Of a stretch of 64,000 nucleotides of DNA, positions 2,084 to 4,055 are shown piece by piece; position 1 is the first letter of the stretch; every line of letters begins with the position of its first letter. The translations under genes and the position numbers were made by a program. The DNA comes from Escherichia phage EcM-vB1, in the sequence record PV574017.1. The stretch is one strand, 5' to 3'. Under the pieces are notes generated by a model. It did no database searches. It was not told the DNA's origin and saw nothing but the letters and a program-made list of their open reading frames with translations.

Positions 2084-2470
2084 GCTTAATCTTTCTCCTG
2101 TATTGTGCCGTAGTCATGCCTATGGTCATAATTTATCTGATTCTCTAATCCTTCCTGTAAGCCTCCTAGTGAGGCTTTTCTCTTTATGAGGTGATTGTAT
2201 GCCTTACTCCCTTTTAGCTCGTTGTGATGCGTTTTAGGACGCTTATTGTTGCTTTACAAGCCGTTTCCTATGATGTATCACGCGCGCCCGTTCTTTTATC
2301 TATCCCACTATAAAAAAGTTTAAAATAATTTGCTTTACCCTATTGCAACCATCATTGGTTAATGTATACTTCAATTCATCGGGTACGATGTAAAACATAC
2401 AAGGCAAGGAAACTTGCCCCCGCTCTTTAAAAATCAGGCTAGAAAGTGAAAATATTCTCAAAAAAGAGTA

Positions 2471-2499
2471 TTGACACCGGAAAAAGCCTGATATATAGT
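2471..2499 (+). promoter_or_regulatory. strong sigma70-type promoter (TTGACA-17 nt-TATAGT) with A-rich upstream element
   Basis: exact -35 hexamer TTGACA at 2471-2476, 17-nt spacer, TATAGT at 2494-2499, A-tract immediately upstream. Confidence 0.6.
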
Positions 2500-3103
2500 G
2501 AGCATAGTCAGCGATGACTTAAAAAATCCCGCTCTTTAAAAATATGATTTGTCTTACGGGTGGCGGCGACGTCATTACTATAAGGCGCTCAGTTAATCGG
2601 TAGAATTGATTCCTGATTCATACGTGACGCAGGCGGACAATAAGCAATATCAATAAGCCTTATTTGTTCGATACTTTCAAAAGATTAATGCTTGAAAGCG
2701 CACTAGATTCCCTGAAAGACAAATCAGACTTATCATCTTGCCCTTTCGCATAGATTCACGCGAGATAAGGGAAAGGAATTAAAAGAAGATGATAAAAAGA
2801 GTTGCAAACGTGGTTAAAGTAGTCCATACTAACCACAAGTTAGCAAAACATCGCTAACTAGTTCCCAAATCAACGTATCGCGGGAAAGGTGGCACATAGT
2901 GCAGCGATTAGTTCAGGTGTAGGCGGCCTGTTAATGAATCAGTAAGCCTTCAATGTGACAGTGATTAGCAGACACTTTAAAAGGCTAAACGCTCTTTAAC
3001 AATATGAGTCATAAGTTAAGCCTCACCGCTTAATCTTCAATCAAATAAAGCTGATTGATATATCCTCCCAATAGCGGGAACGACGAAAAAGACTAAAAAG
3101 CGG

Positions 3104-3132
3104 TTGACAGCGAAAACAACATGATTCATAAT
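3104..3132 (+). promoter_or_regulatory. strong sigma70-type promoter (TTGACA-17 nt-CATAAT)
   Basis: TTGACA at 3104-3109, 17-nt spacer, CATAAT at 3127-3132, A-rich upstream. Confidence 0.6.
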
Positions 3133-4055
3133 GAGCACTCACTAAGCAAATCATCGCTTCAGTGAAAAGCGTAACAACGGCTAACAGTTGCATAGTGTGA
3201 GAAAGCACACTGATAGATTTACCGCTCTTTAATAATTTAAACATTCTCCTATATCGGTTGAATATGCTTGATGATAATAACCATCGGAAAGCATACCAGA
3301 TAAAACGGCGTAAAACTCCCTAAATTATCAGGGTAAACAGTTTTACATTCCCTTACTGGAAACGTCACCATTGATAAACGGATTCATTGAGTACACGCAA
3401 AGACTTGAGCTAATCGCCCACGGTTAAGGGTAGCGGCGGTCATTGCTAACACGGTGCTACAGTGAAAGAAGTTAATCAGGGTAGGCAATCCCGACGAATT
3501 AACGCTCAATTGAGAGCGGCGGGGAGTGGTTAAAAAGTGGCAAATTGCTATTTAACAATAAGGTTTAGTGTGAACGTTTACGATGTGAACGGCTTGAGAT
3601 TCATCTTATGATGAAAGTACATAGTCGGTTTATGTAGTAAACTTGCCGAAAGATATAAAACGTCGGAACATTAGACGGTCAATGACTCTTTCGCAATAGT
3701 ATCCCGTAGTGGGCGATGACTAGCGATTGAGAGTTGATATAAAAGGATAGGCGAGAGCGAAAGCAAAGTAAACGATATTGCCGACGGTTACAATAACGTA
3801 ACTAATTAGAGTCGGACGCACTGCCTTATTGTGATGATTGATCATCGCTATCAGGTCGGCTTCGTTTATAGCGACTAATTAAAGATACCAGATGAAACAT
3901 CACGGATAAGGGGGCGGCAAGGTTAACTCCTGATAAGACCGCCCCGCTTACCTATAACTACTTAACAACGAGTGGTTATAGTTAAGTTAATAGTGACTTA
4001 AACAAGCTCATAGAGAGCGGGGCAATAGCGCCCTTACAATTGAAAGGTGAATATT

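Follow-up and report, generated by a model that had tools for sequence, protein, structure and literature searches.

The DNA analyzed here, referred to in the following as the window, is a 64,000-nucleotide (nt) stretch of Escherichia phage EcM-vB1 (sequence record PV574017.1). Near its start, a small early operon encoding homologs of phiEco32 gp128–125 is followed, after a long gap (2100–4046), by the main early operon, which begins with a homolog of phiEco32 gp124. This gap is the subject of the analysis. An annotation made by a model from the letters alone, below called the sequence-only reading, had described it as poor in open reading frames (ORFs), and there is indeed no ORF of 60 codons or more on the + strand, where the longest encodes 29 amino acids (aa); the longest on the - strand encodes 67 aa (3041–3244). 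Sequence comparison identifies the window as part of a phiEco32-like (Kuravirus) coliphage, reverse-complemented relative to the orientation customary for phiEco32; it therefore starts at the early-gene end of the genome. The phiEco32 counterpart of the gap is a 1.94 kb spacer between genes 125 and 124 that carries no annotation, as in most records. Positions 2000–4100 are 100% identical to Escherichia phages EcK-vB and EcP-vB, and homologs were found in 98 phage records (84–100% coverage, 74–99% identity), nearly all of them E. coli or Shigella Gordonclarkvirinae. The region is thus neither an assembly artefact nor the terminal repeat of ~190 bp, either of which would have undone the earlier proposal. 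A host-derived origin was considered and rejected, as BLAST against 5426 E. coli genomes gave no match. Judged by its sequence, 2100–4046 is a non-coding early leader with a conserved, folded RNA.

The sequence-only reading had also pointed to a repeated 14-nt box, CGCTCTTTAA-N-AAT. It occurs in four exact copies, all on the + strand, and by its match to the consensus it is a boxA of the rrn and T7 type, the class known as the NusB/S10 site of ribosomal RNA (rRNA) operons (rrn). The four boxes, boxA-1 to boxA-4, and the other features upstream of the folded RNA and at the borders of the region are as follows:

522, third promoter, predicted to drive a small operon (588–2083) that terminates at 2159–2186.
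2159–2186 (+), intrinsic terminator, stem-loop AAGCCTCCTAGTGAGGCTT followed by a T-run; it closes the first small early operon (gp128–125 homologs).
2343–2370 (+), weak sigma70-like promoter, TTGCAA-16-TATACT, overlapping TAATGTATA (2360–2368).
2403–2418 (+), hairpin GGCAAG-GAAA-CTTGCC, directly 5′ of boxA-1, where rrn leaders have boxB.
2421–2434 (+), boxA-1, CGCTCTTTAAAAAT, perfect consensus match.
2471–2499 (+), early promoter TTGACA-17-TATAGT (11/12) with an A-tract UP-like element at 2447–2470; predicted start ~2506.
2507–2518 (+), short hairpin GTCA-GCGA-TGAC between the 2471 promoter and boxA-2.
2530–2543 (+), boxA-2, CGCTCTTTAAAAAT, ~24 nt past the predicted start, in a layout like that of rrn P2-boxB-boxA.
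2544–2989 (+), mosaic untranslated segment, variable or absent in relatives, including a conserved block (2731–2805) and a 23-codon ORF at 2789.
2990–3003 (+), boxA-3, CGCTCTTTAACAAT, a 14-mer identical to the T7 early-leader boxA.
3004–3083 (+), three conserved hairpins, TTAAGC..GCTTAA, TCAATCA..TGATTGA and TCCC..GGGA, between boxA-3 and the last promoter.
3104–3132 (+), early promoter TTGACA-17-CATAAT (11/12) with an A-tract UP-like element within 3081–3103; predicted start ~3139.
3194–3211 (+), boxB-like hairpin AGTGTG-AGAAAG-CACACT, 11 nt 5′ of boxA-4, with a covarying stem and a loop resembling rrn boxB (UGAGAAAAAGC).
3223–3236 (+), boxA-4, CGCTCTTTAATAAT, the last box, universal among the 31 loci compared below.
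4043–4955 (+), Shine-Dalgarno sequence AAAGGTG (4043–4049) and gene for the phiEco32 gp124 homolog (ATG at 4056, 299 aa), first gene of the main early operon.
4978–5015 (+), strong intrinsic terminator after gp124, made up of a 12-bp stem (6 GC pairs) and a T-run.

All four boxes match perfectly (from 2422, 2531, 2991 and 3224) the boxA consensus GYTCTTTAANA that Baniulyte et al. derived for gamma-proteobacteria (PMC5725501). Positions C4 and T6 are critical, and a C4A change has been used experimentally to inactivate boxA (PMC5725501); both are intact in all four boxes. Five perfect consensus matches were found in the 64 kb, compared with 0.53 expected, and four of these lie within 2422–3234; none of 100 shuffles reached five. 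In T7, the 14-mer of boxA-3 (2990–3003 here) occurs 63 nt downstream of the A3 start, and the T7 boxA has been called an anti-termination element, mutants of which have a genetic phenotype (PMC3709561). In E. coli, the rrn leader sequence TGCTCTTTAACAATTTATC was present upstream of 16S in 5426/5426 genomes, at a median of seven places per genome, and CACTGCTCTTTAACAATTTATCAGACAATCTGTGTGGGCAC was found at 100% identity in all 5426 complete genomes, ~130 nt upstream of 16S and directly after P2 and the boxB hairpin.

Conservation was examined in 31 loci with 49–97% nucleotide identity, collected through gp124 homologs. The relatives sampled comprised 14 annotated ones, several viral or metagenome contigs, and uncultivated ones recovered via their gp124 homologs (86% and 47–70% aa identity); Logan and ENA contigs were a productive source, and gp124-based scans of IMG/VR and JGI metagenomes gave few. 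A search for the box in related genomes, as the sequence-only reading had advised, returned perfect boxes in 31/31 loci, only upstream of the gp124 homolog and on the transcribed strand. There were two to five boxes in 29 loci and one in each of two loci where the contig stops within 1 kb on the upstream side. Downstream of the gp124 ATG, the 31 loci had no + strand box and a single hit on the - strand. Spacing was constrained as well: relative to the ATG, every one of the 31 loci has its last box between -826 and -936, and the 29 loci with at least two have the penultimate box between -1055 and -1146.

The box itself is invariant, and the 20–45 nt preceding it have been swapped for unrelated hairpins among relatives. 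The 41 nt upstream of boxA-1 fold with -10.6 kcal/mol, and relatives have other hairpins at the same place. Before the last box, the AGAAAG loop is kept and the stem covaries (pair 27/40 of the 3194–3211 stem is UA in 7, CG in 7, AU in 2 and GC in 1); the flank of this box equals the rrn leader over 18 nt in some relatives. The stretch separating the last two boxes can be aligned even in distant relatives; of its 48 predicted pairs, 16 show compensatory changes. Nearly every box is preceded within ~12 nt by a hairpin whose stem differs or covaries, which is the order found in rrn. Since boxB is dispensable in rrn, this hairpin supports the assignment but does not define it. Nearly every locus carries a series of such cassettes, consisting of a sigma70 promoter, 25–200 nt, a hairpin and boxA. 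Every box is on the + strand and downstream of sigma70 promoters that are predicted or published, the start sites being predicted.

Alternatively, the boxes could be operators in the DNA at which a phage or host protein regulates the early promoters, or signals for processing by RNase E/III; their match to boxA would then be coincidental. They are AU-rich and follow hairpins, like many RNase E sites, and boxA-1 precedes the -35 hexamer of the 2471 promoter by 37–50 nt. We consider this quite improbable, however. All 11 consensus positions are matched in four to six copies per genome, in relatives down to 49% nucleotide identity, and in T7 the 14-mer of boxA-3 has been validated genetically as a boxA. 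Moreover, the distance from the promoter varies (+24 to ~+200), whereas the strand and the preceding hairpin are constant, which points to an RNA signal rather than an operator.

The two near-consensus sigma70 promoters with A-tracts that had been predicted at 2471 and 3104 both score 11/12, are conserved in relatives and match the list of early promoters published for phage SU10, where they stand "between CDS120 and CDS121" (homolog of 2471 at 73996, of 3104 at 73511). By this correspondence they are already known. At a threshold of 10/12 or better, a promoter was found at -940 to -1038 from the gp124 ATG in 27/29 relatives (L022 and L036 have none). The total number of promoter-like sites in 1–6000 is not above chance (16, with 16.4 expected). 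The earlier suggestion that the region captures host RNA polymerase (RNAP) was right in substance, in that both promoters are strong, conserved and of the sigma70 early type. A terminator scan of the + strand detected none of the intrinsic type from 2471 up to 4978, and the site at 4978–5015 is the first terminator-like one downstream of the promoters. At the other end, the SU10 and SU7 records have a terminator annotated at the place homologous to 2159–2186.

The TAATGTATA motif at 2360–2368, ~60 nt 5′ of boxA-1, equals exactly the promoter consensus of the phiEco32 phage sigma factor, gp36. If this site were active, transcription of the leader could continue past the shut-off of sigma70. It was present in only 3/29 relatives (this phage, ECBP2 and KBNP1711), and we therefore rejected it as a conserved phage-sigma promoter; its role is uncertain. 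Further exact copies of the motif occur in the window at 33571 (+), 40003 (-), 40195 (+) and 50428 (-), those at 40003 and 40195 pointing away from each other. Plausibly, these are middle or late gp36 promoters of the kind known from phiEco32.

The sequence that separates the last box from the start codon of gp124 can be aligned across all relatives with few indels. This segment of ~830 nt (3237–4046) folds into three closed domains and a set of 3′ hairpins, which RNAalifold, run on 30 distinct sequences, resolved into 45 helices with 235 predicted pairs:

3242–3528 (+), RNA domain 1, closing helix 3242–3249/3521–3528, with helices 3–19 inside.
3529–3556 (+), linker hairpin with a degenerate fifth box, GCTATTTAACAA (3547–3558), conserved, with A at boxA position 4.
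3557–3830 (+), RNA domain 2, closing helix 3557–3564/3823–3830, with helices 23–35 inside.
3831–3903 (+), RNA domain 3, helices 36–38.
3911–3945, 3952–3981, 3983–4000, 4006–4018 and 4019–4034 (+), 3′ hairpins, RNAalifold helices.

The predicted structure exceeded its controls on every pairing measure, none of 500 shuffles reaching the observed values. Paired cells made up 90.7%, compared with 79.4% after column shuffling and 37–44% when partners were slid by 1–3 columns. Compensatory double changes were seen in 156 pairs (86 shuffled, 70–92 slid) and in 689 cells (175 shuffled). The closing helix of domain 1, the 5′ strand of which pairs 280 nt downstream, has compensatory changes in 8/8 pairs; in domain 2, the same holds for 6/6 pairs of helix 29 and 5/5 of helix 34. 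In domain 3, 97.8–99.4% of cells are paired and 19/26 pairs show compensatory changes, as do 10/12 pairs of helix 42. A single-sequence fold from the predicted start site gave z = -9.1. The 12-bp stem at 3952–3981 could be a processing site. The degenerate fifth box appears to be a structural element and not a Nus site: it has the inactivating A at position 4, it falls within helices 20–22, and its 3′ half (AATAAGG) is the 5′ strand of the domain-2 closing helix.

The pairing is also strand-specific. The + strand gave an alifold energy of -323 kcal/mol and the - strand one of -262 kcal/mol, and the + strand structure contains 709 G:U cells and 155 A:C cells, a 4.6-fold excess, showing that the constraint acts on the + strand RNA and not on the DNA. 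This bears on the suggestion that the region is an origin or, more broadly, that it acts as DNA, either as a replication origin or as a packaging or ejection signal with cruciform-forming repeats. It is long, non-coding, repeat-bearing and near the genome end, the AT skew changes sign near 2400, and transcription-activated origins exist (T7 phi1.1A/B). Against this, besides the strand-specific pairing, we found no GC-skew inversion and no iterons or tandem repeats other than boxA in the region. A function at the DNA level is therefore very improbable.

That the region codes for micropeptides or small proteins overlooked by annotation is, if anything, even harder to credit. Short ORFs do exist, such as the 67 codons on the - strand at 3041–3244, and a few records annotate small coding sequences (CDSs) in the variable part. 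The 23-codon ORF that the sequence-only reading had singled out near 2795 is real, starting at 2789, but most relatives lack the segment that holds it, the alignment there consists of 73% gaps, and the ORF is not conserved. In this part of the mosaic segment, identity among relatives is 0.89–0.97 at 2731–2805, and 2806–2830 and 2881–2980 consist of 67–73% gaps. No ORF on either strand is kept in position, frame or length, and one relative has no ORF of more than 26 codons in the 830-nt segment. Substitutions are spread evenly over the three phases in the RNA (1653/1544/1722), with no third-position excess or conserved frame, compared with 1257/963/3083 in the adjacent gp124. Compensatory changes beyond controls, strand-specific pairing and the lack of a coding signal together are the marks of a structured non-coding RNA. 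The small RNAs that had been suggested as another possibility were thus correct in kind and undersold in scale: what the region encodes is a single large, structured RNA of ~830 nt, with hairpin modules upstream of it.

No family in Rfam 15 (4227 families, including GOLLD, ROOL, rRNA, tmRNA and 6S) matched the region at gathering score, and a permissive search (E up to 10) of 2000–4150 gave only sub-threshold chance hits. The RNA has no similarity to rRNA and no second copy in the window. GOLLD and ROOL are large phage-associated RNAs of ~600–800 nt with a multi-domain covarying structure and unknown function, and are comparable in size class and context. The present RNA differs from them in having no covariance-model match and in being located in a proteobacterial virulent podovirus, between boxA and the early operon.

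Taken together, 2100–4046 is probably an untranslated early leader, transcribed by the host polymerase, that follows the plan of rRNA operon leaders and would be loaded with Nus factors for Rho-resistant read-through. The sequence elements, their order, strand and conservation, the RNA structure with its covariation and the absence of a coding signal are observations on these loci. From them we infer Nus binding, antitermination and assisted folding. In such a scheme, the strong sigma70 promoters with their A-tract upstream elements would fire at the start of infection, and each transcript would present a hairpin and then a consensus boxA. NusB–S10 would bind the boxA RNA and, with NusA, NusG and SuhB, render the host RNAP fast, processive and Rho-resistant. 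The modified polymerase would reach the early genes across 0.9–1.6 kb of untranslated RNA, meeting no intrinsic terminator until 4978, and the repeated boxes would reload the factors in the manner of the leader and spacer boxes of rrn. Early gene expression might be accelerated, and genome entry might be driven by transcription, as extrapolated from T7 biology.

The resemblance to rrn is extensive. There, boxA is necessary and sufficient to assemble the antitermination complex. Both systems have the order promoter (P1/P2 with an UP element in rrn), hairpin, consensus boxA, with boxA ~25–85 nt from the start site, and both have boxes repeated along one long, untranslated and highly structured transcript; the boxB-like loop is GAGAAAG in the phage and UGAGAAAAAGC in rrn. 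In the rrnTAC model, boxA is tethered at the RNA exit channel and the boxC strand is held ready for the distant trailer. The phage has a positional analogue of boxC, the 5′ strand of the domain-1 closing helix, which begins 7–8 nt after boxA-4, the place that boxC occupies in the leader–trailer helix of rrn. By the same chaperone logic, a boxA-tethered complex could help this long-range helix to form. The differences are that the phage lacks the boxC sequence and any rRNA similarity, and that protein genes follow the RNA.

T7 (Autographiviridae) and this phage (Gordonclarkvirinae) are unrelated. In both of these virulent coliphages, very strong sigma70 early promoters are clustered at the early-gene end, the transcripts carry a hairpin followed by a consensus boxA, and early transcription by host RNAP is later shut off by an inhibitor of the phage's own, Gp2 in T7 and gp79 in phiEco32. 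However, T7 has a single boxA shared by A1–A3 in a leader of ~175 nt upstream of gene 0.3, whereas here nearly every promoter has a box (4–6 per genome) and the first gene is preceded by 0.9–1.6 kb of highly structured, untranslated RNA. Lambda nutL and nutR are likewise phage-borne combinations of boxA and hairpin in early transcripts, with a structured leader between nutL and the first gene, but in lambda a non-consensus boxA precedes boxB and N is required. Here the order is reversed, a consensus boxA coming after the hairpin, and a non-exhaustive search of the neighboring early proteins brought up none that is N-like, which suggests that host factors alone may be sufficient, with no N-type phage protein. 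CRISPR-array leaders and the suhB 5′ untranslated region (UTR) also have a consensus boxA, ahead of a long untranslated RNA where it counters Rho, or regulating the downstream gene (suhB); these are single chromosomal copies with no large folded RNA behind them.

Several points weigh against this interpretation. BoxA-1 and boxA-3 have no strong promoter immediately upstream, and the boxC sequence, UCUGUGUGGG, found 18–19 nt past boxA in rrn, had no match with two or fewer mismatches in 2100–4046. The RNAalifold partner of boxA-4 differs between alignments (a leader–trailer partner in one, the Shine-Dalgarno region in another), with little or no covariation. Published work indicates that rRNA is itself intrinsically Rho-resistant and that the Nus factors act mainly in folding, and in suhB boxA even promotes termination via translational repression (PMC5725501); the outcome of Nus loading thus depends on context. 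Finally, antitermination alone does not explain why a compact phage genome has kept 830 nt of folded RNA.

An alternative view is that the folded RNA is the main product, a stable trans-acting decoy or scaffold made in rRNA-like amounts, with boxA mainly serving the RNA and read-through being secondary. It might sequester Nus factors, ribosomal proteins or a host defense sensor, or form a ribonucleoprotein with gp124. Conservation of the RNA is roughly on a par with that of gp124 in most genome pairs, and clearly higher in some (0.91 and 0.75, respectively, in SU7). The closed-domain architecture of the RNA is complex, four to six boxes under very strong promoters could titrate NusB/S10, and Gordonclarkvirinae have been reported to be highly resistant to the defense systems tested (PMC11990801). 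RNA and gp124 are adjacent in 31/31 loci and bounded by one terminator, but this co-occurrence is biased because the loci were collected via gp124. Between the two there is no terminator or demonstrated processing site that would yield a separate stable RNA species, and the RNA has no similarity to host RNAs or Rfam families. An AlphaFold model of gp124 was mostly helical (predicted local distance difference test score, pLDDT, 72.5), with no fold match in the PDB at E < 0.5 and no recognizable RNA-binding fold; Pfam and PHROGs gave nothing functional for gp124 or any neighboring early protein. On balance, we regard the decoy or scaffold, in any of these forms, as rather unlikely to be what the region is mainly for. 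The broader notion that the ~830-nt RNA belongs to a new class of large, trans-acting phage RNA machines, made and folded by a host rRNA transcription complex hijacked through the boxA sites, is one that we put forward tentatively, as a possibility in which we have limited confidence. If it were true, the RNA could be a decoy that drains Nus or ribosome-assembly factors from host rrn, or that blinds a defense that senses RNA or ribosomes.

The RNA could also act in cis, as a 5′ UTR that sets the translation or stability of gp124, with a Nus-held loop or pairing between boxA and the Shine-Dalgarno sequence repressing the first gene, as in suhB or lambda nutL–N. Such Nus complexes do repress suhB and lambda N translation across structured leaders (PMC5725501), twin conserved hairpins lie just upstream of the ribosome-binding site, and the 30-sequence RNAalifold prediction pairs boxA-4 (3223–3230) with the Shine-Dalgarno region (4043–4049). 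However, that helix is compensatory in only 1/7 pairs, a different partner is predicted from another alignment, and because boxA resembles an anti-Shine-Dalgarno sequence, the complementarity may be incidental. In addition, 830 nt and 45 helices go far beyond the needs of known translational operators. We consider this explanation unlikely as the primary role of the RNA; it is compatible with the Nus-loaded read-through leader that we favor and does not exclude it.

In the open-access literature, including transcription papers from 2022 and 2025 and the description of the BASEL collection, we found no link between boxA or antitermination and phiEco32 or Kuravirus, an earlier mention in Savalia 2008, Savalia 2010 or Pavlova 2012 being possible. 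A boxA downstream of early promoters is already known for T7, and it is the multiplied cassette arrangement and the conserved 830-nt RNA that appear to be undescribed. PhiEco32 is the transcription model for a group of phages commonly found in nature, included in therapy cocktails and represented in BASEL, and 2.5% of its genome has been blank in nearly every annotation. Recognizing the box as boxA would supply a concrete mechanism by which RNAP crosses this blank region, host Nus antitermination with no phage protein, as in T7, and would extend the T7-style strategy to an unrelated phage family in multiplied form. The 830-nt fold would be among the few large structured RNAs known in virulent coliphages, and would provide a natural substrate, not itself ribosomal, on which to examine whether long-range folding is chaperoned by the rrn antitermination complex. 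The phages concerned are genetically tractable and grow on E. coli K-12 derivatives, which makes the function of the RNA directly testable.

Among the more distant relatives, the uncultivated L020, L022, L024, L025 and L037 (contigs of 15–96 kb) lack the small gp128–125 operon and have a gene-free gap of ~3 kb before the gp124 homolog, with a divergent terminase-side cluster on its far side; the gap holds boxA cassettes and the RNA. At the right end of Salmonella phage 7-11, the record leaves ~1.05 kb unannotated (88864–89916) between the genome end and the first early gene. This non-coding leader of ~1 kb contained no boxA and had no nhmmer similarity to the Kuravirus RNA, and on this comparison the element family does not reach the Grimontviridae. 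The authors of the phage 7-11 report stated that its antitermination strategy was undefined.

A scan of IMG/VR with a two-box pattern gave at least 120 hits, about the number estimated from chance alone. The multi-box loci were considered as further members of the family and rejected: apart from known Kuravirus contigs, they were giant-virus tandem repeats or an unrelated 109-nt array. The latter lies on an unrelated viral contig of 70.6 kb (L042, IMGVR_UViG_641509421; 2160–2960, - strand) and consists of seven exact tandem repeats of 109 nt, in each of which a short hairpin precedes the perfect boxA consensus GAGCTCTTTAAAAAT; the array may consist of iterons or represent a further element with multiple boxA copies. 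Three giant-virus GVMAG contigs (L130, L132 and L137) have 8–14 perfect GCTCTTTAACA motifs within tandem repeats of 25–26 nt (GCATGCACGCTCTTTAACACGGCTG), which look like a repeat sequence that happens to include the motif and not like boxA biology.

Paired GC-rich segments had been noted at about 2560 and 3430. They do share a local similarity of ~45 nt (TTACGGGTGGCGGCG..GTCATT), but there is no significant extended repeat: their comparison scored 75, inside the range of the shuffles (52 ± 9, maximum 80), and a duplicated RNA domain was rejected on these grounds. The AT skew switches from T-rich (-0.2) to A-rich (+0.2) at ~2400, exactly at the onset of the promoter–boxA cassettes; the leader RNA is purine-rich, and the GC skew is positive at 3400–3800.

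In the flanking small operon, the gp125 homolog is seemingly split by a frameshift into 1719–1865 (48 aa) and 1862–2083 (73 aa), where close relatives annotate one CDS of 121 aa; the second piece matches only positions 49–121 of phrog_13168. For these early proteins of 88–121 aa, the names "terminase" and "polymerase" given in PHROG and GenBank look like annotation carry-over. A tRNA-Arg (anticodon TCT) at 10829–10904 was the only Rfam/ARAGORN hit in the 64 kb. Farther into the early region, the product of the gene at 6313–7161 combines collagen repeats (G-x-y) with a C-terminal anchor of the YadA-like type; relatives have it annotated as "agglutinating adhesin" or "YadA-like", and a protein of this outer-membrane adhesin type is unusual among early phage genes.

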